Source: an uncultured virus (IMG/VR IMGVR_UViG_3300029288_000156)
Lineage: Duplodnaviria; Heunggongvirae; Uroviricota; Caudoviricetes
Virus record (IMG/VR): IMGVR_UViG_3300029288_000156
Strand: one strand, 5' to 3'
Length of the DNA stretch: 64,000 bases
The translations under genes and the position numbers were made by a program. The number at the start of each line of letters is the position of its first letter. Positions within the stretch are counted from its first letter, which is position 1. Below are positions 2,051 through 60,709 of the stretch, one piece after another. Below the pieces are notes generated by a model that was not told where the DNA came from, ran no database searches, and saw only the letters and a list, made by a program, of their open reading frames with translations.

Positions 2051-2079
2051 TTGATGACCATTGGACGTCGTGCTATAAA
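2051..2079 (+). promoter_or_regulatory. promoter directly upstream of pentamer array A
   Basis: TTGATG-N17-TATAAA with extended TG; array starts at 2083. Confidence 0.65.
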
Positions 2080-2082
2080 ATA

Positions 2083-2170
2083 GTGACAAGCTTGGCCTTG
2101 ACTTGACGCCACCGGGCCGGACTAGATAAGTTTCGACAAAATGTGTCGCAACGGGACCACACAACACAAG
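2083..2170 (+). repeat. pentamer array A (17 NN-GAC-type units + AAG), putative guide RNA
   Basis: gtgac aagct tggcc ttgac ttgac gccac cgggc cggac tagat aagtt tcgac aaaat gtgtc gcaac gggac cacac aacac aag. Confidence 0.85.
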
Positions 2171-2180
2171 AATTATTTCT

Positions 2181-2396
2181 ATGAAACATTCTGCGTCAGC
2201 AGCCGCAGAGCGACGAAAGCAGAAGCGGCTGCTGACGCAGAATCGTACTCGTAGACTTCAAGGATGTTTCGGAAAGGTTAAATATCCAAGTAAATCGTCG
2301 GCAGAAGCGGTTGGCGGTATGACTGCATATAAGTGTCCAGATTGTAATAATTGGCACTTGACGCAACGCCACCTGATACCCCACGACCGATCTTGA
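2181..2396 (+). CDS. small basic phage Zn-finger protein (C..K..Y...Y.CxxC..WHLT type)
   Basis: CFGKVKY...AYKCPDCNNWHLT; 3' end overlaps array B. Confidence 0.7.
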   Translation: MKHSASAAAERRKQKRLLTQNRTRRLQGCFGKVKYPSKSSAEAVGGMTAYKCPDCNNWHLTQRHLIPHDRS

Positions 2397-2440
2397 CAGT
2401 CTATGACCCACCGCGACCGGACTCAACGCAACAAGACAAG
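2353..2440 (+). repeat. pentamer array B (17 units + AAG), putative guide RNA
   Basis: ggcac ttgac gcaac gccac ctgat acccc acgac cgatc ttgac agtct atgac ccacc gcgac cggac tcaac gcaac aagac aag, then TTTTTATT. Confidence 0.85.
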
Positions 2441-2474
2441 TTTTTATTCACTCGCAATCATAAGGAATCACAAC

Positions 2475-2562
2475 ACGTCGCATCTTGACCACATGGGACA
2501 CGCCATTTTAGCACGGCCCCTGACCGGCCCAGACTCGACCCGACTCGACCTCACAAGACAAG
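2475..2562 (+). repeat. pentamer array C (17 units + AAG), putative guide RNA
   Basis: acgtc gcatc ttgac cacat gggac acgcc atttt agcac ggccc ctgac cggcc cagac tcgac ccgac tcgac ctcac aagac aag. Confidence 0.85.
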
Positions 2563-2598
2563 CTTCATTTAGAAATAATAACGTCTACTACAATCAGT

Positions 2599-2676
2599 AT
2601 GACTGCACCCGACCAGTCACGACCTGACCCGACTCGCCGTTACGGTACCGGTCGTAACCCGACCTCCCAAGCCAAG
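2599..2676 (+). repeat. pentamer array D (15 units + AAG), putative guide RNA
   Basis: atgac tgcac ccgac cagtc acgac ctgac ccgac tcgcc gttac ggtac cggtc gtaac ccgac ctccc aagcc aag. Confidence 0.85.
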
Positions 2677-2683
2677 CTTTCTA

Positions 2684-2704
2684 TCATAATCGCGGCGATT
2701 ATGA
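2684..2704. terminator. hairpin after array D
   Basis: TCATAATCGC-G-GCGATTATGA inverted repeat. Confidence 0.45.
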
Positions 2705-2778
2705 GTTTCATTCTAACGAACATCATTAATTCACTAACGGCATATCAAAAACGCCAACGTATGCCTCGGTGCCCGCAA

Positions 2779-2806
2779 TTATAAATCACTTCGTTTGTGC
2801 TATAAC
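2779..2806 (+). promoter_or_regulatory. promoter upstream of array E
   Basis: GTGC-TATAAC -10 box; -35 weaker (TTATAA). Confidence 0.5.
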
Positions 2807-2808
2807 AT

Positions 2809-2898
2809 CAAATGCGACCAAATGCGACTCGACAAGCCGTTTTGAGACCCGGCCACCCGGCATCACAAGATGGGGCTCGACAGTCTACGACAGACAAG
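2809..2898 (+). repeat. pentamer array E (degenerate, two register slips)
   Basis: caaat gcgac caaat gcgac tcgac aagcc gtttt gagac ccggc cac ccggc atcac aagat ggggc tcgac agtct acgac agac aag. Confidence 0.75.
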
Positions 2899-2910
2899 CC
2901 CCATTTGCAA

Positions 2911-2939
2911 TTAATGACTAACCGCGTCGGTGCTATAAT
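2911..2939 (+). promoter_or_regulatory. promoter upstream of array F (and likely array G plus the RAMP gene)
   Basis: TTAATG-N17-TATAAT with extended TG. Confidence 0.7.
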
Positions 2940-2946
2940 CGAACAT

Positions 2947-3004
2947 GCAACGGGACGGGCCAGTACCGGCCACGACCACTTGAGACGGTATTCGACATGA
3001 CAAG
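2947..3004 (+). repeat. pentamer array F (11 units + AAG), putative guide RNA
   Basis: gcaac gggac gggcc agtac cggcc acgac cactt gagac ggtat tcgac atgac aag, then CGTTATTTT. Confidence 0.85.
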
Positions 3005-3030
3005 CGTTATTTTACCGAACAAACGACTTT

Positions 3031-3093
3031 CTACCCGCTCGGGCCTAGATGTGACCAGATTGGTCCGCCCTGGACGTGATAGACCAAGACAAG
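3031..3093 (+). repeat. pentamer array G (12 units + AAG), putative guide RNA
   Basis: ctacc cgctc gggcc tagat gtgac cagat tggtc cgccc tggac gtgat agacc aagac aag, then TTTCTTTGTTTCTTT. Confidence 0.8.
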
Positions 3094-3143
3094 TTTCTTT
3101 GTTTCTTTCTTTCTAACCCTGTGCTACTGGAGTGAGTACTGTT

Positions 3144-3731
3144 ATGATTACTGCTACTGTTCGTCTGAAAGGTGTTGCCCCCTACGGTCAGAGTCGCAAT
3201 TACGTCATGGACGTGCCGAAGAATGACAAGGAGCGTTCCGACGACTACGAGAAGCGAACTTGGCGCAACCGGCTTCACATTATGGCCACTGGCCCGCTTG
3301 AAGGCCATGTTTTCATCCCGCCGATGGCCTTCAAGAACTGCCTTGATGCGTCGGCGAAGTACATGTCGATGCAAGTGCCTGGAAAAGGAAAGGCGACTTA
3401 CACGAAGCACTTCGAGGCCGGTATCATGGTCGATCCCGAACCGATCGTCTTGCCCGATATCGCCGCAGACGTCGAAGGCATCTGGTTGTACGTTCCCAGC
3501 GACGGCAAGCGCGGCGGCAGCAAGCGCGTTTGGAAGTGCTTCCCCATCATCAAAAACTGGGAAGTTGACGTCGTGTTCCACGTCTTGGACGAGACGATCA
3601 CCGAGGAGATCTTCTTGAAGCACATTCAGGAGGCTGGTCGGTTCATCGGCATCGGTTTCTTCCGTCCGCGCAACAGCGGCTATTATGGCCGGTTCAGCGT
3701 GGAGAGCTTGAATTGGGTGAAGCAAGATTAG
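3144..3731 (+). CDS. stand-alone Cas7-like RAMP-fold protein (Vipr-like putative RNA-guided effector)
   Basis: N-terminal strand ITATVRLKGVAPY; FIPPMAFKNCL (cf. RAMP IPGSSLKG); C-terminal Gly-rich loop AGRFIGIGFFRP...GYYGRFSV. GGAG at 3129-3132 favours ATG 3144 over GTG 3132. Confidence 0.75.
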   Translation: MITATVRLKGVAPYGQSRNYVMDVPKNDKERSDDYEKRTWRNRLHIMATGPLEGHVFIPPMAFKNCLDASAKYMSMQVPGKGKATYTKHFEAGIMVDPEPIVLPDIAADVEGIWLYVPSDGKRGGSKRVWKCFPIIKNWEVDVVFHVLDETITEEIFLKHIQEAGRFIGIGFFRPRNSGYYGRFSVESLNWVKQD

Positions 3732-3755
3732 TACGCGAGCACAACAACGGCACGA

Positions 3756-3787
3756 ATCCTCCACCGGTCACTTGACCGGTGGAGGAT
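3756..3787. terminator. perfect 15-bp hairpin between the RAMP gene and array H
   Basis: ATCCTCCACCGGTCA-CT-TGACCGGTGGAGGAT, followed by GTTTGT. Confidence 0.6.
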
Positions 3788-3797
3788 GTTTGTACAA

Positions 3798-3860
3798 AGA
3801 ACTGCACTGGCCATGCCAAGACGAGACGTGACCGGATTAGTCTCGGCTCAACACGACAAG
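3798..3860 (+). repeat. pentamer array H (12 units + AAG), putative guide RNA
   Basis: agaac tgcac tggcc atgcc aagac gagac gtgac cggat tagtc tcggc tcaac acgac aag. Confidence 0.85.
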
Positions 3861-3892
3861 AAGCGTTTCATCATTTATCATTATTTACAAAC

Positions 3893-3955
3893 TCGACCGG
3901 AAATGACTGGATAACACTGGACCCGTCGAGACTGGTCGGGACAAGACAACACAAG
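3893..3955 (+). repeat. pentamer array I (12 units + AAG), putative guide RNA
   Basis: tcgac cggaa atgac tggat aacac tggac ccgtc gagac tggtc gggac aagac aacac aag, then TGCTTGTTTCTTT. Confidence 0.85.
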
Positions 3956-3992
3956 TGCTTGTTTCTTTACTAACCCTTTTGAGGAATTACAC

Positions 3993-4592
3993 ATGTCAGA
4001 AACCACAGCCACTCTACCCACGACTGCATCAACGATCACTCATCCGAAGAAGCCGAATACGATGATGAGCGAAGCGACGCGCGCTGTTCTTGGCATGTTC
4101 CGGCAACTCATAGAGTCGCCTGACATGACCATCAGCAGGGATGAACTGAGTGCAGCAATTGGCGAGGAAGTTAAACCAGGGAGTATCACGACAGCAGTCA
4201 GGCATATGCGTCGTGATCACAACATTACTGTCGAGTGGGACAGGATTTCGAAGGTATACCATCGTTCTGTCGGCGAGGACAATCTTATTCGACGAGCAGG
4301 CGATTTCAGATCTATTCGTCGCAAATCACGCATCGCTCGTGAGAAAATTGCGACATCTGGCTTTGAGAACATGTCTGATGAGCAGAAGATCCGGGCATGT
4401 GCGTACTCTAGTGTGTTTGGCGTCATGGCTCGTCTCGGTGAGTCAAGTAGCATAAAGAAGATCGAGAATCATGTCACCAAAGCGAATGTTGACGGCATTC
4501 CGATCGGTAACACTTTGTCGCTGTTTAATGAGCAGGCAGTGAAAGTGCAGGCGCAGCAGGGGCCACAAAATGGTGTACGGCCACAGAGCTAA
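3993..4592 (+). CDS. winged-HTH-like protein embedded in the array locus
   Basis: ISRDELSAAIG...SITTAVRHMRRDHNITVEWDRISKVY resembles HTH plus wing; GAGG RBS. Confidence 0.6.
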   Translation: MSETTATLPTTASTITHPKKPNTMMSEATRAVLGMFRQLIESPDMTISRDELSAAIGEEVKPGSITTAVRHMRRDHNITVEWDRISKVYHRSVGEDNLIRRAGDFRSIRRKSRIAREKIATSGFENMSDEQKIRACAYSSVFGVMARLGESSSIKKIENHVTKANVDGIPIGNTLSLFNEQAVKVQAQQGPQNGVRPQS

Positions 4593-4596
4593 TACG

Positions 4597-4654
4597 GCGT
4601 CACCATTCGACACCATGTGACTCGACCGATTAAGACTTGTCGATACAAGACAAG
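4597..4654 (+). repeat. pentamer array J (11 units + AAG), putative guide RNA
   Basis: gcgtc accat tcgac accat gtgac tcgac cgatt aagac ttgtc gatac aagac aag, then GTTTTT. Confidence 0.8.
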
Positions 4655-4681
4655 GTTTTTGCTGTATATGAAGGCTGAATT

Positions 4682-18691: not shown

Positions 18692-19642
18692 CTATGATAT
18701 ACCGAGCTGCTGTAGTTTTATCTCTAACTCTTTTCTTTCCCGTTTTCCTAGTGGCTTACCCCCCATTTGTTCTTCCGGATGTAATATTTTACGTATTTCC
18801 AAGATCTCCGGTTGGCTTAACGTCATAGCGTTAAGCTGATAATCCTCAAATGCCTCCCAAGCGAATGGGACAACGCCTTGAATGAGTTTCGCAATAGCAT
18901 TTGCGTATGTTCTGATTTCAAGTTGGGCATGGCTATCCATGCGTAAACCCAAGAAATGAAATAGATTGTTGCCGTCGATCTTCCAATATGCCTCGGTATA
19001 TGTGCTCAGCGGCAGATCTTTTCTGGCTTGCTCTCTGGCGATACCAGCATCAATCCTCTCCAGATACACTCGGTTAGCAAGCTCATGTAGCTCTGCTTCT
19101 CTCTTTGAGAGATATTCGCCAGTGAATTCGTAATAGGCTGCTGGGTCTGGGGGAGAATGCAGGTGTGCTGGTGCGAACTCACCAGAACCCTGCTTACGAT
19201 CACTGGCTTGTAGCCGCCATTGGTCGGCGCTTGTAACACTGCGGCTATCGATGGCTTCGCTATATCGTGTCGAATACTCATTCACGCTTGCGGTGCGATG
19301 TCGTATCCATTGACGCCAACAATCCATCGGAACGCGAACATGGAATTTGAACTCTACCATCTCTAACGGCGAAGTGTGTCGATGGCTCATCAAATAGCGT
19401 ATGAGAGATCTATCATCGCTGACAGCTTTTGTTCCAGCACCATAACTCACTCTGGCAGCTTGAACTATTGCTGAATCGTCGCCCATACGGTCGACAAGGC
19501 GAACAAAACCATCGTCTAGGCATTCGATCAGGCGACCGGTATTCATCGCATTCAGAAGACTGCGGAGCTTTTCACCAGTCGATAATCTGGTTTCTAAATC
19601 TTCGATATCGGGTAATGCATTAAGACGGGACAGAATGCTCAT
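18692..19642 (-). CDS. thyX: FAD-dependent thymidylate synthase
   Basis: AARVSY, HTSPLEM, RQWIRHRTASVNEYSTRY, EQARKDLP, HAQLEIR. Confidence 0.97.
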   Translation of the reverse strand: MSILSRLNALPDIEDLETRLSTGEKLRSLLNAMNTGRLIECLDDGFVRLVDRMGDDSAIVQAARVSYGAGTKAVSDDRSLIRYLMSHRHTSPLEMVEFKFHVRVPMDCWRQWIRHRTASVNEYSTRYSEAIDSRSVTSADQWRLQASDRKQGSGEFAPAHLHSPPDPAAYYEFTGEYLSKREAELHELANRVYLERIDAGIAREQARKDLPLSTYTEAYWKIDGNNLFHFLGLRMDSHAQLEIRTYANAIAKLIQGVVPFAWEAFEDYQLNAMTLSQPEILEIRKILHPEEQMGGKPLGKRERKELEIKLQQLGIS

Positions 19643-37766: not shown

Positions 37767-39134
37767 ATGTCAAAATATTGTAAATTCGGTCATATCAAGG
37801 GATCTGATCTAGACTGCCCAGCATGTAAGATATCTAGATATGTGAAAGAAAGACATAAAAATCCATCACTCGCTATGGTGGCTGCTAAAAATAAAAATTT
37901 TGTTAATCTACAATCAGAAGAAGCAAAAGCTAAACGTGAAGCATATTTTAAGTCTGATCTGCATAAATCAAGAGCACGAGAAAATGCATTATTGCTCGTA
38001 GCAAAGAGAAAGACTGGCGAGATCTCGCCGCAAATTAAGACACACGACACTAAACCAGAACTAGCTGTTGCTTCAACATTAGATGCTGCTGGTATAAGAT
38101 TTGTTAAACAGCAAGTATTCGGTCCATACACTTTTGATTTTTATTTGCCAGACTATAAGATATTACTAGAAGTACAAGGTGAATATTGGCATTCATTACC
38201 AAAGAATATAGCTAATGATTTGGCCAAAGCGGCATTTATAGAAAATAATTATCAGGACCTACATCTAAAGTATGTTTCTGAGAGAGAAACAATCACTAAA
38301 GGCCGACTAATAACAATATTAGGTGGTTTTATTGGAATCACCCAAGTTAATAAAGAAGACGTTGATTTGGCTATTTGCGAGGTTAAAATCATTCGAAGTG
38401 ATATCGCTAAAGATTTTCTAGCTAAGTATCATTACTTACCGAGATTTCGTAAGAATACCAAAGCCTGTTTTGGTGTATATTATACAGGAAAATTGATAAG
38501 CGTTGTTATCTTTGCGCAGCCGAGCTACAACACAGCAATTAACAGACATGGACTGGCAGCTTCCGCTGTAGTTGAACTATCAAGGTTCGTTATAAGTGAT
38601 AGCTATCATACAAAAAACTTAGCTAGCTGGGCTTTGAGTAGGTGCATACGATTGTTGAGGACCAGATATAGAGAAATTGCATTAATTATTTCGTTTGCAG
38701 ACCCACACTTTGGACATATTGGTACAATTTATAAGGCTAGTAATTGGATTTTTGACGGTAATACAAAGCCAAGTTATTATTATAAAGATTCGTATGGTGG
38801 TATAATTCATAAAAAGGTTATATGGGACCATGCACAAAAATTCGGCATATCTGAAAATAATTATGCTAATATGAATAATTTGATAAAAATCATAACGGAA
38901 CCAAAGAAACGTTTTGTATATTGGCTTACAAAGCCGAGTACAATTGCCAAAGGCACAATGCAGGTTAAAGCGACTTGTGTCGTTTGCAACGAAGAATTCC
39001 TTGTGTCAAAGAAGGCGCTAGATAGGGCGATGCTTAAGAACAATAGCTATATTTGTCATCCTTGTAGTGTGTCGCGCTGTTGGGATGGTGGTGTTTATGA
39101 GAACAGACCAAAGTCAACAAAAATCGATAGATAG
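37767..39134 (+). CDS. Vsr/DUF559-like PD-(D/E)xK endonuclease fused to Mom-like GNAT domain
   Basis: TKPEL...FDFYLP...LEVQGEYWH; FLAKYHYL...ELSRF...ASWALSR...ISFADP..GH.GTIYKASNW. Confidence 0.8.
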   Translation: MSKYCKFGHIKGSDLDCPACKISRYVKERHKNPSLAMVAAKNKNFVNLQSEEAKAKREAYFKSDLHKSRARENALLLVAKRKTGEISPQIKTHDTKPELAVASTLDAAGIRFVKQQVFGPYTFDFYLPDYKILLEVQGEYWHSLPKNIANDLAKAAFIENNYQDLHLKYVSERETITKGRLITILGGFIGITQVNKEDVDLAICEVKIIRSDIAKDFLAKYHYLPRFRKNTKACFGVYYTGKLISVVIFAQPSYNTAINRHGLAASAVVELSRFVISDSYHTKNLASWALSRCIRLLRTRYREIALIISFADPHFGHIGTIYKASNWIFDGNTKPSYYYKDSYGGIIHKKVIWDHAQKFGISENNYANMNNLIKIITEPKKRFVYWLTKPSTIAKGTMQVKATCVVCNEEFLVSKKALDRAMLKNNSYICHPCSVSRCWDGGVYENRPKSTKIDR

Positions 39135-40428: not shown

Positions 40429-40794
40429 ATGAATGATACTGATGATTTTGATGTCTCTCAACTGCGATGGTGGCGATGTGTTGCCACTGATACTGATAAT
40501 AAAATACAGACTTTCACTGCGGAGATCGACCCAGATCGCATCTACGCAGAATTTAATAAAATACGACGAGATTTGCAACAGAAGGGCTGGTGTTTCATCG
40601 AAGCCAAGCCAATTCCTGAAGAAGAACTTCTAGCAGCAGCAAAATTGTCGCGATTTAAGACACGCAAACGTGAGCAGTTACGTGGTCTTACTGGGCGGTG
40701 TTACTCTCCGCTTTCTCATTGGCCAGCCGCACTATTTGCTGTGCTATTTGTTGTGCTAATTCTATGGCTGGCGTATCACCATTTAAGTACTTGA
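40429..40794 (+). CDS. hypothetical protein with C-terminal TM
   Basis: ALFAVLFVVLILWLAY; overlaps the tmk 3' end convergently. Confidence 0.5.
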   Translation: MNDTDDFDVSQLRWWRCVATDTDNKIQTFTAEIDPDRIYAEFNKIRRDLQQKGWCFIEAKPIPEEELLAAAKLSRFKTRKREQLRGLTGRCYSPLSHWPAALFAVLFVVLILWLAYHHLST

Positions 40795-41401
40795 TGTGTT
40801 CGAGCGGCACATATCTCGATAACATCATTAGTGCTTCTGGGCTCAATGAGAGCAGATTATCATAAAGATCACCTACTCGTTTTAGAAGTTCGACGTTGTG
40901 GTCGTATCTATCTGATTTTGAACGATCGGTCGATTTATTCATACGCTCGACGATCGTTTCCCATCGATTCGATATGATAAAGACTCTATCTGGTGCAGGT
41001 GATTGCACAAGACCTAGTAGTTTATTGATAGCAGTTAGTTTTAAGCCTTCGGACACACCATAGACGATGCAACTGATATAATTCGATCTGTCAGCTAGCA
41101 TGACACCACCTTGCTCAAGGTGCGGTATCAGCTTGGTGTTGACGAAACAGCTGTGATCCACCATCATCATCATTTGGACCGACATATTATCGATCTCAAT
41201 AGGTGGCTCACCCGGTTCACTAAATAATTCAGGTTGTTTGACAAGCTTACGTAGATGCTTGCCGAGTGGAGTAGAACCAGGATGACGAGTAAGAATGCAG
41301 TTTAGCTCTGTATTTCGTAATTCCTCCATCACCAGATGAGCAAGAGTAGATTTCCCGGACCAATCGCCGCCTTCGAATACGACATATAATCCTTGATGCA
41401 T
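40688..41401 (-). CDS. tmk: thymidylate kinase
   Basis: VVFEGGDWSGKST P-loop, RHPG, ADR..S..VYG, PD. Confidence 0.93.
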   Translation of the reverse strand: MHQGLYVVFEGGDWSGKSTLAHLVMEELRNTELNCILTRHPGSTPLGKHLRKLVKQPELFSEPGEPPIEIDNMSVQMMMMVDHSCFVNTKLIPHLEQGGVMLADRSNYISCIVYGVSEGLKLTAINKLLGLVQSPAPDRVFIISNRWETIVERMNKSTDRSKSDRYDHNVELLKRVGDLYDNLLSLSPEALMMLSRYVPLEHIKYLNGDTPAIELAQQIAQQIVRLANEKAESNTAQ

Positions 41402-41434: not shown

Positions 41435-42958
41435 CTATCGTTTAAATACAAACCGGAGTTTTTCAGATCCATGTACTTTTATAAATCCAAACTGCTCAGC
41501 ATATTCTGCCTCTTTCATAGATAGATTCACAGCTCTATTATATAATGTCTTCTTATGCATAACCCAACCATCAGGTGACCGATACCAATAGTCAGGACGT
41601 ACAACTTTGTCGGCGGTGAAATTCAGAGCTTTATAAATTGCACCATTGTGATTGAAAGTAGTATCACAATAAGCGACTATAGTGTGATAATGAGATGGCA
41701 ATTGTTTAATACAACGGCTGACAAACCAAGATGCGAAATTTCGTTTTTGGTAATTTGGGTGTACACATAATCTGGATAAGTCGCGTGCAGTCTGATCAGA
41801 AATATCAATATTTTGTCTACCAAGCGGTGAAAAGATGCAAACAGCAATTAATTTGTTTTTGAGATATGCACCATATGCTATGCCGCCGCGTCCGCCAGTC
41901 TGTAAATAATGATATTTCTGTAATAATGGCTTATAGCTGCTCGCCTGGCAATGCTTGATTTCTATTTGATTAAATTTAAAGTCTACTAGCTCTGGCTTAT
42001 TCAAACCAAGCCAATATTGCAAATTGCCAATGACGCGCTCTTTACAGGCAAATTCGTGTTCCCAGATAGTTTTCAGCTCATGTGTATCTGAATGATATTT
42101 TGCAATATAGGTCGATTTTGCTTTATCTGCTGCTCGCTTCGTTGGTAGTCGATGGATGAAATCGCCATTGCATTCTATTAATAAGGTGCGATTGCCTTGC
42201 CTCGGAATAACGCAGTCAAACGACCACGGTCCAACTACACATTGCCCATCGTCTGGCTTATTATTGTACTCACGATAATATTCGACGCCTAGATCGTCAA
42301 GCATTGAATATAACGTTTCTTGGATTCTTGATACTTTTGGAAGGCTGGCGAGCGCATTTTGAAGTTTTTTGATATATTCCGGATCTGATTGAATCGCACG
42401 CATTTTCGCTTTGAATTCAGGCGTAGATTTAGAAGATAAGACTTTGCGGCGAAATGATTCGTCTTGCCAGCGTGCTCTAAGCCCGGCTAATTGCTTTTCT
42501 CTATATTCTTTATTTTGCCATACTCTCTTAGATGATGAAGACATAAGCTGCCGATACTCATCAGATCGATAATATTCCAGGAGCTTATCAGATATCGGAG
42601 TTTTATTGGCTGTTCTTTTAGAACTTTCAATAATCTTGGTACGATACTCTGTCTGCTGCCACAATCTTTTAGAGTGCTCAGATTGGAATTGTTTCAGCTC
42701 GGTCGCCGATAATTTTTTACGCTTAGGCTTGCAAAAATTCTTGCGTTGCTTTTCTTGCTTTTGTTGGTAGTTTGGATCTTGCCATAATTTTAATGCATTT
42801 TCAATCTTCTTCTTCTTATATTCTTGATCGGTCCATTTTGCTTTGATGGCACAACTACGGCAGCACCAATTACTATAATCACGATTTGCAAGACATTTTA
42901 TAATCTTGCTAGCACCACAAGAGCAAGTTAACAGTGTTGGTATGGCTATACTTGGCAT
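41435..42958 (-). CDS. Zn ribbon + W-x-D/N-x-E-Y repeats + Vsr/DUF559-like nuclease + Mom-like GNAT fusion
   Basis: CSCG..CRSCAIKAKW; FDCVIP...IECNGDFIH...IWEHE; KYHYL...DLSRLC...FASWFVSR...VAYCD...HNGAIYKALNF. Confidence 0.8.
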   Translation of the reverse strand: MPSIAIPTLLTCSCGASKIIKCLANRDYSNWCCRSCAIKAKWTDQEYKKKKIENALKLWQDPNYQQKQEKQRKNFCKPKRKKLSATELKQFQSEHSKRLWQQTEYRTKIIESSKRTANKTPISDKLLEYYRSDEYRQLMSSSSKRVWQNKEYREKQLAGLRARWQDESFRRKVLSSKSTPEFKAKMRAIQSDPEYIKKLQNALASLPKVSRIQETLYSMLDDLGVEYYREYNNKPDDGQCVVGPWSFDCVIPRQGNRTLLIECNGDFIHRLPTKRAADKAKSTYIAKYHSDTHELKTIWEHEFACKERVIGNLQYWLGLNKPELVDFKFNQIEIKHCQASSYKPLLQKYHYLQTGGRGGIAYGAYLKNKLIAVCIFSPLGRQNIDISDQTARDLSRLCVHPNYQKRNFASWFVSRCIKQLPSHYHTIVAYCDTTFNHNGAIYKALNFTADKVVRPDYWYRSPDGWVMHKKTLYNRAVNLSMKEAEYAEQFGFIKVHGSEKLRFVFKR

Positions 42959-45245: not shown

Positions 45246-46166
45246 TCATAGTATTCGCGACTCCATGGCTGTCTGGTGCAAGATATCTCTATTGACACCC
45301 ATAGCCTCGGCCAAAGCATATTCTGTCTGGATAGTGCAGTTAAACTGTATAGGATCATCTGCTCCAAGAGTAATCCTGCATCCTGCTGCCTGCATTTTCT
45401 TTACTGGATGCTTCGCCAAAGCGATTGTATGAGTGCAGATATTACTATGAATGGACATATCAAATACGATACCCAAACGAGTAACTTCTTTTTGCTGCTC
45501 CTCAGTAGCGTAGATGCCATGGGCTATTCTGTTTATACCCATTTCATGAATAGCTTTACTTATATTGATGGCGGTTCCAGGTCTTTCACCGACGTGAGCA
45601 CGAATTGTCTTACCCTTTTTGCGCCATGGTTCAAGCGGCACCATATAGTCTGACCATCTAGCGAGAGATTCATCACCTACGAAATCAATCCCAACCATAA
45701 ATCGGTCTAGTGTTTTCACCAAACCGATAGCTTGCATTTGTAATTCTATTGGCCATCCATAGCTGACAGACAGTAAGAAATTGACGTCGACGCCAAATTC
45801 CTGTGCTGCTATATTGAATATGCTAAAGAAACGCTCACCCGCCGCCGCCAGCTTGCCTGATCTAGCGAACTTGTTCAGAGAAACAGTAATAGTGGCATGC
45901 TCTATCTGTTCTGCTTTTATATCAGAACAGACTTGATTAGCCACAAGGATAAGAGCCGAATCGTCCCATCGTAGCTTATTAAGAATATCGAATCTGGTGC
46001 AGAAATATTCAAAATCGCCATCGTCACGCATTAAGCGTACTTGCTGCTGGACGTCGAAGAGCGAGTCGGCTATTCCAAATCCACTTGAATTACTGATGAT
46101 CTCCCAAATAGTTTCTGGACTGATAGAACCTGCTAGATGCCGGTGATTTTCGACAAACATTATCAA
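45246..46166 (-). CDS. adenosine/AMP deaminase family protein
   Basis: ENHRHLAGS, GIDFVGDE, AHVGE, RIAHG, SN, GADDP. Confidence 0.9.
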   Translation of the reverse strand: MIMFVENHRHLAGSISPETIWEIISNSSGFGIADSLFDVQQQVRLMRDDGDFEYFCTRFDILNKLRWDDSALILVANQVCSDIKAEQIEHATITVSLNKFARSGKLAAAGERFFSIFNIAAQEFGVDVNFLLSVSYGWPIELQMQAIGLVKTLDRFMVGIDFVGDESLARWSDYMVPLEPWRKKGKTIRAHVGERPGTAINISKAIHEMGINRIAHGIYATEEQQKEVTRLGIVFDMSIHSNICTHTIALAKHPVKKMQAAGCRITLGADDPIQFNCTIQTEYALAEAMGVNRDILHQTAMESRIL

Positions 46167-51699: not shown

Positions 51700-53307
51700 T
51701 TATGTAGCAATGGTATAGATAATTCTTAGTTGGTCTGCTACCTCTAAAATAACGTTGCCTTTGAGAAATAAAGCTGTAGCCCAGAGAGAATTACCAGCTG
51801 AATTATCGCCTTTGATTTGCGAGTTTGGGCCGGTTACGACGAGCAAGCCTACAATCGTACAACTCTCTGTAATATCGAATAGGGATTTCGTTGTGTTCGC
51901 TATAGTTTGTCCAGATGCTTCGTCGGTATACCAAACTGGCCTGGTATTCGTATCGCCGTTGCTGTTTGGATCTGAATAGCCCGTGAATTCTAACCAATTA
52001 TTACCACCGACTCCGGATAATGTAGTATGAGCACCCCATGTCAGCTCATTTGTGACTGATGATTGATTGTAATATTCGAATTTGATCCAATCATCAGTTC
52101 TTATAGCAGATGAGATGCGTACTTCATCAATTGCACCTGAATAAAAAAGGTCGCTAGGGTTTCCACCGATTATATTGCTTGTCCAGGGTGCATGCGCTAT
52201 ATCATAATTTCCAGCATAATTTATGGTTGAGTTTGCAGCACCATTTACATATAACGTAGCATCGCCTGTTGAGCTATCATATGTAACTGCTAAATGCGTC
52301 CAAGCAGCTAGTGTGATTGCATATCCGAAACTAAAAGATCGCCAACTATTATTAAGATATAGGTATGCGCCGATTTTTCCTGACGAATTACGACCGACTT
52401 CTAAGATATATCCAGAATCGAATCCTATGATGTTCGATCCACTAGCTACCGTTGTGTTTAGTGGGTTGACCCAAGCAGACATCGTGACATCAGGTATAGT
52501 CAATGATGCGTTGTTTGGTATTATTATGCTTTGAGCTTGACTTAAATTAAATTTTTTACCCCAACCAATTTGGCCTGCGAATTGTACTGGTTGATTGGTC
52601 GTATTTGTACTATCGTTACCATTAATTGTCGAATCTACAAAATCACCTACAGCACCTGTTCCAGATTCTGATAAATGCCACACACCTTTATAGCTCGATT
52701 CCCATACATTTTCAGCGTCTTCACCATCTACAGCGAGATTATTACCGTAATAGATATAGATCGTTGTTGTAGTATTATATTGAATGGTTGGTACTTTCAC
52801 CCAGAAAACGGCAGTGGCGGGCGTTCCATTTCCACCAGACCAATATTCACGCTCATAACTTAATAAAGTTATTCCATCCGATGAAGTGAATCTGATATCA
52901 TAACCAGTTGATGTTGCGTTACTAAAATCTGCGTCAGAATTAATTCTGACGCATAATGGAAAATCAGTTAAATCATCGGTGCCTACATTTGTATTATCGA
53001 TAGTTATCGCTTTGCGATACTTCCAATAATATTGCCAATATGGTACAGTAGGATCGGATATATCTGAGTAGTGGTTAAGCCCTTGATATGTATCGAGTGT
53101 AGACAATGATACATATCCAACATTGTCGATCAAGCTCATGTAAGTACGCAATATCTGCGTACCGTTATAAAAGTTAGTGCGTAGGATATTATTTTTACCT
53201 TCGATAGTGACGCTATTCGGCATATCATAACGGTCGATCATTGAACCTTTACGCCAGTGTTCGACAAAGAACTTTCCAGATGGTTCAATTTTATTTGATA
53301 TTTTCAT
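51700..53307 (-). CDS. virion protein (paralogue of 61231-61773) with inserted DUF2341 + LamG-like cassette
   Basis: WKYRKAITID...DFPL...DIRFT...FWVKVP...YIYYGN; WTHLAVTY...LYVNG...GAIDEVRIS. Confidence 0.8.
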   Translation of the reverse strand: MKISNKIEPSGKFFVEHWRKGSMIDRYDMPNSVTIEGKNNILRTNFYNGTQILRTYMSLIDNVGYVSLSTLDTYQGLNHYSDISDPTVPYWQYYWKYRKAITIDNTNVGTDDLTDFPLCVRINSDADFSNATSTGYDIRFTSSDGITLLSYEREYWSGGNGTPATAVFWVKVPTIQYNTTTTIYIYYGNNLAVDGEDAENVWESSYKGVWHLSESGTGAVGDFVDSTINGNDSTNTTNQPVQFAGQIGWGKKFNLSQAQSIIIPNNASLTIPDVTMSAWVNPLNTTVASGSNIIGFDSGYILEVGRNSSGKIGAYLYLNNSWRSFSFGYAITLAAWTHLAVTYDSSTGDATLYVNGAANSTINYAGNYDIAHAPWTSNIIGGNPSDLFYSGAIDEVRISSAIRTDDWIKFEYYNQSSVTNELTWGAHTTLSGVGGNNWLEFTGYSDPNSNGDTNTRPVWYTDEASGQTIANTTKSLFDITESCTIVGLLVVTGPNSQIKGDNSAGNSLWATALFLKGNVILEVADQLRIIYTIAT

Positions 53308-56300
53308 AATTTGTTGAAAAACCTGGACAAACAGAAATCAGTTGGGACGTCTAATGTTGGATTGTTTATTTTTAAGATTTCATTAGAACAATAAGGACTA
53401 CAATAAATTGTTCCTTTTGAAGTTAAGGTCCCACCAACCCATTTTGTCGAAGTTAAACCATTTTCACCCCATGTTGTTATTGCGTCTGTAGCAGGGTTGA
53501 TTCTTAAAATTGTTGAACTGTTAGATGGTATGCCATAAATCATACCATCCGATCCCACGACACCACCAGCCCATTTTGAGGATTTTTCTAAAATAGTATG
53601 AGCACCCCATGTCAGCTCATTTGTGACTGATGATTGATTGTAATATTCGAATTTGATCCAATCAGTAGATCTCGCAGAGCTTGATACTCTAAACTCATCA
53701 ATCCATCCAATAAAATTATTATCACCTACTCCTGAGTGTCCGACATATAATGGAGTTGTACCGGAACAACCAATAGGAACAGAGATAGTGCCAGTATCTT
53801 TCAAGACACCATTTAAATAAATTGATCCGAGCGCACCAGAAGTGAGCGTTATTGCAAGATGGTACCATGTATCGTTACTAATAGTACCGGCATTCACGAC
53901 AGTCACATCGGTCATTGTGTTAGTTGTGAACCCTATTGAATCAGTATTATTATATCTCGCTACTCTATAGTGTTGATAGGGGTTTGCCCAGCTGCTTAGA
54001 TAATATGGCTTGCAGAAAATGGAAGCCCAGATCCCGGCCCACCCTACACGTCTAAACCAGCATGAAACCGTCAGAGATGTAGTAAAATTAATATTCGAGG
54101 AATCAATTGTTATCCATTGCGATCCATTTACATAAGCAGCACCATTTAGATATCCTGTAGCAGCTGTAGCACCAACATTCACTCCGTTTGTTGCATTGGC
54201 TGTTGAGTCTAAGACAGATAATTCAGTACCGTTTCCAAAATGATAAACACCTTTAAAATTAGAATCCCAAGCGCCTGTCGAATCGGTTCTACTGACGGCG
54301 AGGCGATTTCCATAATAACAATAAATGGTTGTATTTGTTGAAGAGGAGATATTAGGAACTTTAACCCAGAAAGTACCATTAGCTGCACCGCTTGTTATAG
54401 AAAATACTTCACATTCAGCAGATAGTCGATTAAAATTTTCATCTGTAAAATAGATATCATTACCGGAAGTTAGACAATGAGCACCGATATCAGTATCATT
54501 AGTGATTTTCACATATAGCGGAAATGATGCAAGGTCGCTACTAACATTTGTCTTCGAAATTGTTATTGTTTTACGATAAACAGGCTGCATAACAAATGTT
54601 GTTGTTGTATCTGTAATCGGGTCAATTTTGAGAACGGCTGTGTCATTATGTGGAATACCGTAAATCACACCGTTCGGAGCTAGAACACCTCCTACCCATT
54701 TTGCTTGTGCTGCTGCTGTATGATCTCCCCATGTAATCTCACCAGATGACATGTTATAATATTCAAATTCAATCCAATCAGCTGAGCGAATTGTGTGAGA
54801 GATACGAACCTCGTCGAGCGATCCAGCCAGCGGCCACTGCCAAGTGCCATTTAAATAAGCTCTACCCATCGCTAGAGCACTTGCTGATACACCAATAGTG
54901 CCAACTCCTTGAGCGGTTGCTGTATTGTCGAGAGCTCCGTCGACATATATATATATAATTGAACCATTACGGACAGCGGCACAATGATGCCAATTACCAT
55001 CGTTCAAATTTGTTTTTGTGCTAATTACAGAATACCACGTTGCATCATTGTTAAGACGATAACCAAAATATGTTGTGTAAGTATTGCCACTCCCAAGCAG
55101 AAAGAATTGATATCCTGTTGGTGTTGCTGAAGATTGCGTTGTAAAACGAGCTATAAGTGCTTGATGTGCTGTTCCTGTCTGAGTTGATTTAAACCAGCAT
55201 TCTATTGTAGCATAATCAGGCAGGTTAACATCTGGATCAGATGGAACAGAGATTGAATGGGCCGTAGATCCGTCGAATAATGCACATCCATCAACTTTAC
55301 CGGCAGCCGCAGTGATGCCCGTTATTGTTCCATTATTAGTATTGATTGTAGAGTCTACAGCACTTAATGTCGTGCCGTCGCCTAAATGCCATACGCCTTT
55401 GTGGTAACTATCCCAAACGGATGAGGTGTTCGTTCTAGCGGTCGCCCCGTCATTCCCATAGCAACAATAAATAACTGTATCTGCTGTAGCAGAGAGACTT
55501 GGGACTCGAACCCAAAAAACGCCGGTTGCTACGCCGTCAATGACAGAAAATGATTCACATTCGGCATCTAAAGGATAGAAATCAGCGTCTGTAAAAACGA
55601 TATCGTTACCAGAAGCTAAACAAACAGCACCAATATCAGCATCGCCATCGATCTTTACACATAATGGAAAATTGGTAAGGATACTATCTATATGTGTATG
55701 AGAGATTGTAATCGATTTTAAATAGCTCTGCCCAACGCTACCAAATGTTGTTACTGTGTCTGTGGTTGGATCGATCTTTAATATCATTGGGTGATTATAG
55801 GGAATGCCGTATATCATGCCATCAGGAGCTAGAACACCGCCGATCCATTTACCACTACCTGCTAGGCTTCCAAATGTTGTTGTTGTATCAGTAGTTGGAT
55901 CAATTTTTAATATAGTTGTGCTGTCATATGGAATGCCGTAGATTGATCCATTTGTAGCTGCAACGCCACCGGCCCATTTGGCAGTACCATCTAAGCTACC
56001 GAATGTTGTTATTGTATCTGTTGTGGTGTCGATTTTTAATATCGTTGTACTGTTATATGGCATCCCATAGATTGCACTATTTGAGCCGAGGACACCTCCC
56101 GCCCATTTTGCTGTATCAGAAGATAAACTTCCAAGCACTATGCTTTCATCTGTGTTTGGGTTTATTTTTAAAATCGTCGCACTATCATATGGAATATTAT
56201 AAATCGCTCCGTTTGGTGCTAGAACACCACCATACCATTTATTGTCGGCTGATGTGATATTAGGAGATGCAATGCTATCGGAAACTAATCGAGAACACAT

Positions 56301-56462
56301 CAAATTGGTGTTGTATCGTATTGATAATGCTTGTTTAGTTTGTTCCCACTTATTGCTATTCGTCCCCCAAGTAGGAAAATTGCCATGATTAACGGCAGAT
56401 CCTAAAGCCGGCAATATTTCTATTCTATCAGCTTTCGATATTAACGGTTTTTGATAAGCCAT
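53304..56462 (-). CDS. beta-propeller-repeat adhesin/tail protein with two DUF2341-LamG cassettes
   Basis: W.GGVLAPNG.IYGIP...ILKIDPTTDT.TTFGS repeats interrupted twice; ends VPTDFCLSRFFNKL. Confidence 0.8.
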   Translation of the reverse strand: MAYQKPLISKADRIEILPALGSAVNHGNFPTWGTNSNKWEQTKQALSIRYNTNLMCSRLVSDSIASPNITSADNKWYGGVLAPNGAIYNIPYDSATILKINPNTDESIVLGSLSSDTAKWAGGVLGSNSAIYGMPYNSTTILKIDTTTDTITTFGSLDGTAKWAGGVAATNGSIYGIPYDSTTILKIDPTTDTTTTFGSLAGSGKWIGGVLAPDGMIYGIPYNHPMILKIDPTTDTVTTFGSVGQSYLKSITISHTHIDSILTNFPLCVKIDGDADIGAVCLASGNDIVFTDADFYPLDAECESFSVIDGVATGVFWVRVPSLSATADTVIYCCYGNDGATARTNTSSVWDSYHKGVWHLGDGTTLSAVDSTINTNNGTITGITAAAGKVDGCALFDGSTAHSISVPSDPDVNLPDYATIECWFKSTQTGTAHQALIARFTTQSSATPTGYQFFLLGSGNTYTTYFGYRLNNDATWYSVISTKTNLNDGNWHHCAAVRNGSIIYIYVDGALDNTATAQGVGTIGVSASALAMGRAYLNGTWQWPLAGSLDEVRISHTIRSADWIEFEYYNMSSGEITWGDHTAAAQAKWVGGVLAPNGVIYGIPHNDTAVLKIDPITDTTTTFVMQPVYRKTITISKTNVSSDLASFPLYVKITNDTDIGAHCLTSGNDIYFTDENFNRLSAECEVFSITSGAANGTFWVKVPNISSSTNTTIYCYYGNRLAVSRTDSTGAWDSNFKGVYHFGNGTELSVLDSTANATNGVNVGATAATGYLNGAAYVNGSQWITIDSSNINFTTSLTVSCWFRRVGWAGIWASIFCKPYYLSSWANPYQHYRVARYNNTDSIGFTTNTMTDVTVVNAGTISNDTWYHLAITLTSGALGSIYLNGVLKDTGTISVPIGCSGTTPLYVGHSGVGDNNFIGWIDEFRVSSSARSTDWIKFEYYNQSSVTNELTWGAHTILEKSSKWAGGVVGSDGMIYGIPSNSSTILRINPATDAITTWGENGLTSTKWVGGTLTSKGTIYCSPYCSNEILKINNPTLDVPTDFCLSRFFNKL

Positions 56463-56464
56463 TA

Positions 56465-57610
56465 TTAAGCCTTATTGAAATGGCGAGACAAACAAAAATC
56501 AAGCGGCACGTCATCTAGTGCAACGCCAATTTTCAACACTGTTGTAGCCGTGAATGTTATTCCGTAAATGCAACCGTTTGAAGCAAGGATCCCGCAATCC
56601 CATTTATCAGTCCCTGTTAAGCTCCCATATGTCGTGTATGAATCAGTAGTTGGATCAATTCTAAGTATTGTTGTCGTTGTTGAACCGCATGGAATGCCGT
56701 AAATACAACCATCTGCCCCGAGTACGGAGCCAATCCATTTATATAGCCCGGTATAGTTTCCTAAAGATATAACTGTATCAGTAGTTGTGTCGATCCTCAG
56801 TATGCTTGGACTATCTTGCGGGGCACAATAGATCATTTCATTTGGTGCTAAAGCACCACCGTACCATTTGTGTACCCCGGCTTCTACAGGAAGACTTCCA
56901 AATGTTGTTATTGTGTCCGTGGATGGATCGATTTTCAACACAGTCGCACTACTGCCTGGTATTCCATAAATACAACCATTAGGGGCTAATACTCCGCCTT
57001 GCCATTTATTGCTGCCTGTCAAGCTTCCAAATGTTGTTACTGTGTCTGTGGTTGGATCGATTTTCAACACAGTTGTGCTGTCATATGGAATACCGTAGAT
57101 ATAACCGTTTGGAGCCAGAACCCCACCTTCCCATTTAGCAGTGCCTGTTAAGCTTCCAAATGTTGTTGCTGTATCTGTGGTTGGATCAATCTTCAGGATT
57201 GTTGTATTGGTAAATGGCATCCCATAAATGTAACCATTCGGAGCCAAAACACCACCCTGCCAACTCCAACTAGCTGCCCCAACGCTACCAAACGTTGTTG
57301 CTGTATCTGTGGTTGGATCAATCTTTAGGATTGTTGCAATGTTGCAAGGTATACCATAAATGCAACCATTCGGTGCTAAGACGCCACCTATCCACTTACC
57401 AGCACCAGCATCAAGACTTCCAAAGGTTGTTGCGACTTTCTGAGCACTGGCACGATTTGTGCCGGCTCTCATACAAATCGCTAATTGTGTTTGTGCCCAT
57501 GCGATTTTGTTGCTTTCCCATTCAGGGAAGTCAATATGATTTAATAAATCTCCACTTGCCAAAGAACCAATCGAATTTGATTTTTGAGTTAGCGGTATTT
57601 GATATGACAT
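56465..57610 (-). CDS. beta-propeller-repeat protein (seven ~42-aa blades, no insert)
   Basis: seven W.GG/G.LA.NG.IY repeats; ends VPLDFCLSRHFNKA. Confidence 0.8.
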   Translation of the reverse strand: MSYQIPLTQKSNSIGSLASGDLLNHIDFPEWESNKIAWAQTQLAICMRAGTNRASAQKVATTFGSLDAGAGKWIGGVLAPNGCIYGIPCNIATILKIDPTTDTATTFGSVGAASWSWQGGVLAPNGYIYGMPFTNTTILKIDPTTDTATTFGSLTGTAKWEGGVLAPNGYIYGIPYDSTTVLKIDPTTDTVTTFGSLTGSNKWQGGVLAPNGCIYGIPGSSATVLKIDPSTDTITTFGSLPVEAGVHKWYGGALAPNEMIYCAPQDSPSILRIDTTTDTVISLGNYTGLYKWIGSVLGADGCIYGIPCGSTTTTILRIDPTTDSYTTYGSLTGTDKWDCGILASNGCIYGITFTATTVLKIGVALDDVPLDFCLSRHFNKA

Positions 57611-57622
57611 TTGATTTCCGTA

Positions 57623-60600: not shown

Positions 60601-60709
60601 CCGGAGCATAACATAGACCTTTCCAGAGATCTGGGCGTTCACTTTCAGCTTCACATCTAGCAAACCCAGTTGCAAAGCTTGGTATCGATTTTTCTTGCGA
60701 TATACCCAT
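57623..60709 (-). CDS. LamG-like N-domain + propeller repeats + one DUF2341-LamG cassette
   Basis: same repeats and cassette; ends VPDDFCLSRHFNKL. Confidence 0.8.
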   Translation of the reverse strand: MGISQEKSIPSFATGFARCEAESERPDLWKGLCYAPAMFLGPGVGYDVVLRAYGTLRSSSTFTGQTAMGPALYSSSTASTDGAYWTYPKQTGSQPSGEAAPRRPTRDYTILIWYKAIAWNSADSFLWTIPYYTNGWYSPYYVMWLFRAGSGTTLTTAYYNGSTTPSVTSGNGIVDTSDTTNINMYGTTRKGATASFYKNGRWHSSGTFSADSAIVYPWFENQYAIDCRGGFSVSGTWYNPAGYFPLCLVWDRGLSTQEIADVYSDPYSLFRLRRWITVKSLYLNLSTSNTLSVTQTAVDTVAAPVITFSKSLAVESNTIQSFSATDIINHGNFPAWETNSLAWTQTRQAINIRAEANTASFNPTTTTFDGLSADASKWFGGVLSANGSIYSIPYSSATVLKIDPTTDIATTFGSVGADASKWYGGVLAANEKIYGIPHNATTILKIDPATDTATTFGSAGAGSADWAGGVVAANGAIYSIPYNATTILKIDPTTDTVTTFGSAGAGSADWAGGVLASNGYIYGIPYNSTSVLRIDPTTDAVTTFGTLTGSTKWIGGVAASNGMIYGIPSKGSKFLKIDPTTDTATTFSSTSAGVILRKKKITISETYVDADLTDFPLCVQINADTDIGAVCLASGDDIYFLDSNDNQLYSEKDAFAVTAGAATGTFWVKVPTVAAAANTIIYCCYGNGRVDTASTAASVWSSYFKSVHHLNSDSNVVNTADSYSYNNNGTNTGVVGATTGRFNGSGSGYFNAASYIILGTDASINLHSDFTISFWMKRNGWTAGNGWDGIVSKPYYAASWSMPYHQWTVKRYSNGNYLSFAMNNGGSVLELPTVTAISDATWYYITATCSSAGAAKIYINGVVDKTGTTAVPINCSGTTPVYFGAGNAMSPDGKYIGYLDEVRLAGIARSAEWIKFEYYNQVSTTGQLTWSDQYTDEAKWIGGVLGSDGMIYTVPFSAPIVLKIDPTTDTTTTFGSPGAAAKKWAGGVLTPSGIIYCTPHDAANFLKIGGITADVPDDFCLSRHFNKL

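Follow-up and report, generated by a model that had tools for sequence, protein, structure and literature searches.

Does a viral locus in which a gene for a small Cas7-like RAMP protein stands among ten arrays of 5-nucleotide (nt) units encode an RNA-guided system and, if so, of which kind? We analysed such a locus at positions 2071-4662 (+ strand) of a 64-kb stretch of DNA from an uncultured phage (IMGVR_UViG_3300029288_000156). The whole stretch is henceforth referred to as the window. We conclude, with a probability of about 0.9, that this is a VIPR locus. VIPR systems are RNA-guided silencers of DNA that are related to CRISPR and entered the literature in April 2026. Each unit of its arrays consists of two free bases (NN) followed by three fixed bases centred on GAC, henceforth the handle. 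An initial annotation, made from the sequence without database searches, had likened the locus to the VIPR architecture; that architecture is described in passages of 10.64898/2026.04.26.720920, and the locus matches it. The locus is a further example of the published VIPR systems, with the handle GAC in place of the GGY of the systems published first, and the GAC/NN repeat form has itself already been published (passages of 10.64898/2026.10.21.760802). What is new here is the anatomy of a ten-guide locus, an (AA+handle)n-AAG array end, the spread of handles within one clade, two candidate specificity residues and guide turnover.

Pentamer arrays around the vipr gene

The intergenic DNA between 2083 and 4654 contains ten + strand arrays of 5-nt units, 58-93 nt long; nine are in register and array E is shifted (Table 1). 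The arrays were read in 5-nt register backwards from a closing AAG, and their 5' limits were set by eye. Over the 126 units of the nine in-register arrays, the information content at unit positions 1-5 is 0.00, 0.02, 0.55, 0.74 and 1.34 bits. Positions 3-5 read G-A-C, as the initial annotation had described: position 3 is G in 82 of the 126 units (65%) and position 4 is A in 88 and G in 2. Almost all units end in a pyrimidine (125/126; C 107, T 18, A 1), which makes the arrays strand-asymmetric; the earlier count had been 123 of 124, and ours uses our own array limits.

We assessed whether such arrays could arise by chance. Using the set of triplets listed in the initial annotation, a 7-of-8-unit criterion returned five + strand runs, all within 2510-3957, compared with 0.06 on average, and never more than 1, in 50 shuffled sequences. 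A 6-of-8-unit criterion returned 11 + strand runs, all within 2083-3962 (shuffle mean 0.3). The - strand runs mirror these, GAC being the complement of GTC. Arrays J and E were missed by both criteria. A periodicity detector that makes no use of the handle called ten arrays around vipr. No GAC-type arrays were found elsewhere in the 64-kb window, and its other period-5 blips differ in kind.

Every array ends in AAG, after which the sequence is T-rich, as first noticed, and AAGAC-AAG is a shared end. The sequence AAGACAAG occurs eight times in the window, compared with 2.2 expected, and four of these copies are array ends. A stretch resembling an array end (TGGCC TGGAC ... AGACAAGACAAG) lies at 59665-59697 (-), inside a gene for a 1028-amino-acid (aa) protein (57623-60709), and may be a chance occurrence or a relic. 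No fold common to the array 3' ends was predicted; what they share is (AA+handle)n-AAG and the T-rich sequence. For arrays A, B, C, D, G, H and J, predicted folding does not exceed that of shuffled sequences (z -0.65 to +1.74), as expected for a single strand coated by protein. Only array E is clearly structured (folding z -2.33, terminal hairpin).

Promoter-like and terminator-like elements flank several arrays. The extended -10 motif TGCTATAA that precedes array A recurs at 2798-2805 before array E and at 2931-2938 before array F. Its general form, TGCTAYAA, occurs 18 times in the window (4.7 expected) and precedes arrays A, E and F by 6-8 bases. Other sites of this approximately fourfold over-represented motif (for example at 944, 8049(-), 8127, 18481(-) and 18527) are often just 5' of gene starts, and TGCTAYAA is probably the common promoter -10 element of this phage. 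Scans with consensus models found promoter-like sites before array A (sigma-70-like, 2054-2081), array D and array I (3853-3881), as well as a terminator-like hairpin (4636-4654) at the end of array J, followed by GTTTTTGCTG; in these scans, the totals over the window were not above those in shuffled sequences. The perfectly paired hairpin that follows vipr is, from its sequence, a likely terminator.

Table 1. Features of the VIPR locus. The last column gives the comparison with L001, the corresponding locus of a related phage.
Feature	Position	Strand	Description	Comparison with L001
Promoter-like extended -10 motif	2071-2078	+	TGCTATAA; precedes array A	
Array A	2083-2170	+	17 units + AAG	Same place, strongly diverged, 41% identity, NN largely rewritten
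Zinc-ribbon ORF	2181-2396	+	71 aa; phrog_15216, E 1e-6	80% identical
Array B	2353-2440	+	17 units + AAG; overlaps 3' end of zinc-ribbon ORF	Orthologous, 76% identity, gap-free
Array C	2470-2562	+	18 units + AAG	Orthologous, 83% identity
Array D	2599-2676	+	15 units + AAG	Same place; differs at 20/30 NN and 17/45 handle sites; guide rewritten
Array E	2812-2898	+	Composite, register shifts; terminal hairpin (ATGGGGC...GCCCCAT), then TTTG	Orthologue regular
Array F	2947-3004	+	11 units + AAG	Orthologous, 87% identity
Array G	3031-3093	+	12 units + AAG; directly 5' of vipr ribosome-binding site	Orthologous, 87% identity
vipr	3144-3731	+	195-aa Cas7-like RAMP; PDB Vipr match, Cas7/Csm3 fold in model	
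Hairpin after vipr	3756-3787	+	15-nt arms, 100% complementary; then TGTTTG	94% conserved
Array H	3798-3860	+	12 units + AAG	Orthologous, 85% identity
Array I	3888-3955	+	13 units + AAG; upstream of vap-like gene	No counterpart
vap-like gene	3993-4592	+	199 aa; modelled winged helix, then long helices	
Array J	4597-4654	+	11 units + AAG; more degenerate; last units form the hairpin before a T-run	

The zinc-ribbon open reading frame (ORF) among the arrays contains a perfect 19-bp inverted repeat (2188-2206 / 2225-2243) in its first 60 bases, just after array A. In L001, on our reading of the alignment, the right arm carries three C-to-T changes, each of which would keep a G-U pair in a + strand RNA. 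This pattern hints at a conserved RNA hairpin at 2188-2243.

The Vipr homologue and its relation to published systems

We compared the 195-aa protein with sequence and structure databases. Among all PDB chain sequences, the sole significant match was 36pp_D, "SUSP1 Vipr protein" (E 5e-6, residues 122-189, single-sequence search), and a profile built from 30 sequences again retrieved SUSP1 Vipr (E 2e-8) as the only match at E <= 0.01. Similarity to SUSP1 Vipr could be detected only in the C-terminal ~70-85 residues, where the loop rich in glycine (G-loop), GIGFFRPRNSGYYG, aligns to that of SUSP1 Vipr. The protein matched a PHROG family without known function (phrog_4652, E 3e-11) and no Pfam family. 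Searches of metagenomes retrieved at least 2210 homologues (protein clusters) at E <= 1e-3 among 2245 candidates; the 120 listed are without Pfam domains, and their names are uninformative.

The RAMP fold that had been read from sequence motifs is borne out by structure prediction. The AlphaFold model has a mean predicted local distance difference test (pLDDT) score of 89, and its top Foldseek matches are type VII Cas7 and type III-A Csm3 (E 3e-7 to 1e-4, template modelling score about 0.5). In an independent structure aligner, Csm3, Cmr4 and other class 1 Cas7 proteins lead (Z 9.3-7.3, with Csm3 at 9.3), and 14 of the 15 top entries are CRISPR effector complexes or RAMP subunits, judged by their titles. 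The solved SUSP1 Vipr structure is absent from both structure-comparison results, and the likeness of fold is to the Cas7 group. The protein shares the RRM core, the thumb hairpin and the glycine-rich loop with Csm3, Cmr4 and type VII Cas7, at 8-20% identity. Cas7-group RAMPs and Vipr are both thought to polymerise along a guide RNA, Cas7-group proteins with a 6-nt period and contiguous pairing, VIPR with a 5-nt period and a gapped code. Unlike loci of Cas7-group RAMPs, the locus is without other cas genes or CRISPR repeats, as initially annotated: PADLOC matched no Cas family among 61 scanned ORFs of the window, and Tandem Repeats Finder found no CRISPR-like array in it. The class 1 CRISPR-Cas set, in which Cas7 is accompanied by Cas5, Cas6, a large subunit and a CRISPR array, was not found at the locus.

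The vipr gene had been described as a lone gene, and this part of the initial annotation did not quite hold, as vipr is accompanied by the accessory gene at 3993-4592. The model of the accessory protein (pLDDT 78) contains a winged helix at residues 27-92 with H-E-H-H-E-E topology. Its best Foldseek rows are winged-helix regulators of the MarR, DtxR, Fur and BrxR types, all at E > 1e-3. It matched no Pfam, PHROG or PADLOC family and had no significant sequence match in the PDB. On the basis of the model, the accessory gene appears to resemble the published vap, for which interaction with DNA is predicted, as a second, winged-helix gene after vipr. No sequence similarity was detected between it and the gene that follows vipr in "heid", a SUSP1-like Felixounavirus phage (E 1.8), or the gene in the same place in phage DSL-LC04.

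To place the locus among its relatives, we scanned IMG/VR, confirmed 191 relatives of vipr among 233 candidate stretches and kept 80 loci. Runs of G-R-Y pentamers accompany the homologues: the strand of the gene carries them in 67 of the 80 loci, the opposite strand in 11. A tblastn search placed relatives of the accessory gene no more than about 3.5 kb from vipr, and on its strand, in 13 of the 80 loci; among the 12 matches listed, the relative is directly downstream of vipr in L001, L011, L014, L028, L042, L052, L061, L063 and L069. Compact loci have the order array, vipr, array, accessory gene, array, with an array in the position of array G, directly upstream of vipr; in the 12 of 80 loci for which arrays were printed, the arrays end in one to three units with NN = AA, then AAG. 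The closest Vipr homologue found in a named phage record is that of DSL-LC04, a lake isolate (OR003939.1, L134; 29% identity over 162 residues, E 4e-14). Its pentamer arrays (~2040-2130) are just upstream of the vipr coding sequence (2315-2932) and, unlike those of the window, have GGT/GGC handles. DSL-LC04 carries an unannotated VIPR locus, whose Vipr homologue is labelled "helix-turn-helix transcriptional regulator".

We compared the locus with the published systems. Passages of 10.64898/2026.04.26.720920 describe a phage-borne Vipr, vrRNAs in which 9-16 YNNGG repeats precede a 3' tail, a code that skips one base in reading double-stranded DNA, the repression of competing elements, an accessory vap gene, and seven types. 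The alternative repeats given there are NNNGG, YNNNG and NNNNG. With the type II VIPR of Escherichia phage SUSP1 and of a Pseudomonas fulva prophage, the locus shares a small RAMP homologue, pentamers with three fixed and two free bases on the strand of the gene, and a phage-borne two-gene layout of vipr and accessory gene without cas genes or a CRISPR array. It differs from SUSP1 in several respects. The handle is GAC here and GGY there; the 3' end is a short (AA+handle)n-AAG here, in place of the structured pseudoknot tail of type II; and there are ten arrays, several with promoter-like sites of their own, compared with four in SUSP1. Passages of 10.64898/2026.10.21.760802 report 21 clusters comprising 6,318 sequences of non-canonical repeats ("e.g. 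GAC/NN or CAC/NN") beside Vipr-like folds, so that both the repeat formula and the fold are shared with our locus; these passages give motif and fold, and not links between handle and residue, tails or guide turnover.

The locus therefore holds a Vipr homologue with a RAMP fold, same-strand pentamer arrays, a vap-like gene and a viral context without cas genes or CRISPR: the window holds phage-type genes, and the relatives of vipr sit in IMG/VR contigs. The GGY triplet itself was not found, G being present at the middle position of the handle in 2 of 126 units. Since "a related consensus" is permitted in passages of 10.64898/2026.04.26.720920 and GAC/NN is named in those of 10.64898/2026.10.21.760802, the lack of GGY does not exclude membership of VIPR.

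The arrays are known here from DNA, and they might act as DNA, that is, as repeated sites to which the winged-helix protein, or a factor for replication or packaging, would bind, with the RAMP protein unrelated to them. The predicted DNA-binding protein encoded in the locus would suit such a role. However, arrays accompany vipr on its own strand in most relatives, their composition is strand-asymmetric, they have promoter-like and terminator-like flanks, and the homologous SUSP1 arrays correspond to sequenced RNAs that co-purify with Vipr (passages of 10.64898/2026.04.26.720920); published VIPR arrays give rise to RNAs of ~100 nt. We consider this explanation highly improbable. If the locus works as a VIPR system in the way described for SUSP1 and P. 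fulva, each array would be transcribed into a vrRNA of ~60-90 nt, on which Vipr protomers would polymerise, one per pentamer, gripping the three handle bases. The free NN pairs would read double-stranded DNA with every third base skipped, which would block transcription of a competing mobile element, and the accessory protein would add to the silencing effect. Expression, loading, the pairing rule and targets at this locus are what we infer by carrying them over from SUSP1.

Handle diversity and guide turnover

The handle varies with lineage among the relatives. Most loci have GGC. GAC is found in the window and in L001, L002, L003, L007, L032, L051 and L060, xAC in L006, GTT in L011 and L042, GTC in L022 and L026, and CGC in L008, L025, L031, L048, L050, L053, L054, L056, L057 and L058. 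GGC and GAC are mixed in many loci. The series from GGC through GAC, GTT and GTC to CGC spans proteins that are 55-65% identical to the Vipr of the window.

We asked which residues of Vipr track the handle by scanning the 195 columns of an alignment of 64 distinct proteins; the handle classes were partly assigned by eye, and the p-values of the scan ignore shared ancestry. Position 172 best tracks the A-type handles, with F in 5 of 8 proteins compared with 0 of 56, and position 133 best tracks the CGC handles, with Y in 7 of 8 compared with 0 of 56. In both HMMER alignments, 172 aligns to D177 of SUSP1 Vipr and 133 to R138. According to passages of the cryo-electron microscopy study 10.64898/2026.04.26.720927, one protomer binds each repeat; G1 is read by H17 and D177, G2 by R138 and W178, and Y3 contacts E71, M72, R179, C173 and T175; D177A and R138A each abolish silencing. 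The association at 172 is incomplete: the A-type L051 has M at this position, and the GAC-type L032 and L060 retain R172. In a quick tree, F172 is confined to one clade (window, L001, L002, L003 and L007; Shimodaira-Hasegawa-like approximate likelihood ratio support 87), and L006 and L051 are placed elsewhere on a weak backbone. Specific to the branch of the window are the G-A-C handle, the near exclusion of G from its middle position, the accompanying Phe in place of Arg at position 172 of the G-loop and the short (AA+handle)n-AAG 3' end. It is possible, with the odds somewhat against it, that the two residues at 172 and 133 set the choice of handle in this Vipr clade and that changing them would make VIPR systems mutually orthogonal.

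Guides can be followed between two related phages. The IMG/VR contig that carries L001 (G001, 122.5 kb) shows synteny with the window, with an identity of about 70-87%. Most arrays of the window have an orthologue in L001; arrays A and D occupy the same places with rewritten guides, array I has no counterpart (Table 1), and L001 has arrays that are missing from the window. The window sequence is present in landfill and groundwater metagenome runs, and contigs similar to that of L001 are present in two of those runs. One landfill and one groundwater run hold both window-identical and L001-like contigs, and the guide sets of the two phages partly differ.

Targets, alternatives and the wider window

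Several results weigh against the assignment to VIPR, at least in the form known from SUSP1. The arrays of this locus are known from DNA sequence. In SUSP1, GGY>GAY was among the handle changes tested, and perturbing GGY abolished silencing (passages of 10.64898/2026.04.26.720920); GAC handles would thus need an adapted protein. Among the orthologous arrays without gaps (B, F, G and H), NN positions tend to differ less from L001 (13 of 104 sites) than handle positions do (31 of 156), but this trend is not significant (p 0.13). The exact GAC triplet is found in 50 of 126 units, and with the degeneracy of arrays E and J this suggests that some arrays may be decaying.

Searches for guide targets add to these points. 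The target rule was a 1-nt skip (NNx) on both strands, and scans of the large collections allowed exact seeds only. In the window, no target scored above controls with shuffled unit order and there were no self-targets, the latter in agreement with the absence of self-targeting stated in passages of the published work on VIPR. The best scores were also within the shuffled-order range in the 80 related loci (skips 0-3) and in the 122.5-kb G001 (skips 0-2), and only the orthologous arrays, at skip 3, exceeded the controls. In G001, a pattern search that tolerated 3 mismatches found 0 matches. The matches to exact seeds all extended at chance level: in IMG/VR, 3 for guide H (1-2 of 8 further bases), 37 for guide F (at most 3 of 6), 1 for guide C (2 of 18) and 3 for guide I (at most 3 of 8); in prokaryote genomes, 1 for guide H (0 of 4); in metagenomes, 1 for guide C (6 of 18). 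Three of the guide F matches resemble a tRNA T-arm by eye.

These results could mean that the VIPR system is decaying or acts mainly as a sponge, with degenerate guides competing for loading onto Vipr, similarly to the solo vrRNAs by which satellites divert Vipr (passages of 10.64898/2026.10.15.759431). The share of exact GAC units, the shifted register of array E, the weakness of array J and the lack of targets in the searches made would all fit. This is nevertheless quite improbable: the pyrimidine at position 5 is kept in all units except one, five arrays are 76-87% conserved between phages that are about 70-87% identical genome-wide, and vipr remains an intact ORF, with 88% identity to its L001 counterpart. 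The target search, being restricted to exact seeds, is also a weak argument for decay.

Alternatively, this branch could have a pairing rule or target type of its own, such as another skip length, RNA targets or the participation of unit position 3 in recognition. Position 3 is G in only 65% of the units, the handle and the tail differ from those of type II, and no targets were found with a 1-nt skip. Against a separate code, the scans with skips of 0, 2 and 3 yielded no targets either, the clear bias at position 3 contrasts with the 0.00 and 0.02 bits of positions 1-2, and the motifs of the thumb, helix 1 and the G-loop are conserved. We regard a separate code as unlikely, and a VIPR system of the published kind with a changed handle as the best description of the locus.

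Apart from the VIPR locus, we noted several features of the window. A megablast search of 20 kb of the window gave no match to named phages, and scans for Rfam families and tRNAs in the window were likewise empty. The genes at 37767-39134 (+), 41435-42958 (-), 18692-19642 (-) and 40688-41401 (-) encode endonuclease/Mom-like proteins, a thymidylate synthase and a thymidylate kinase; two proteins of this set join homing or HNH endonuclease-like parts to Mom-like DNA modification parts. Together, the Mom-like proteins, thymidylate synthase and thymidylate kinase may constitute a DNA base-modification module. A 306-aa protein (45246-46166, -) matches the PADLOC model CARF5--CARF_ADA over profile positions 329-559 of 605 (E 1e-11). 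Tandem repeats of 129-132 nt within 55737-59616 (-) are located inside large - strand ORFs (53304-56462, 56465-57610 and 57623-60709) and represent repeated protein modules, perhaps tail fibre-like.

With this locus, a class of RNA-guided DNA binders known for some months now reaches into a large environmental clade whose members differ in the fixed part of the guide. Because the phage pair shows guides that are kept, rewritten, gained or lost, it can help to address how new guides are acquired by a system that lacks Cas1 and Cas2. The handle series and the two candidate residues offer a route to testing how handles are read and to building VIPR tools that do not cross-talk. If the two residues do set the handle, switching among handles (G, A, T, C) would stop the solo vrRNAs of rivals from loading onto the phage's own Vipr, and would in this way free the phage from guide hijacking of the kind described in SUSP1 satellites.

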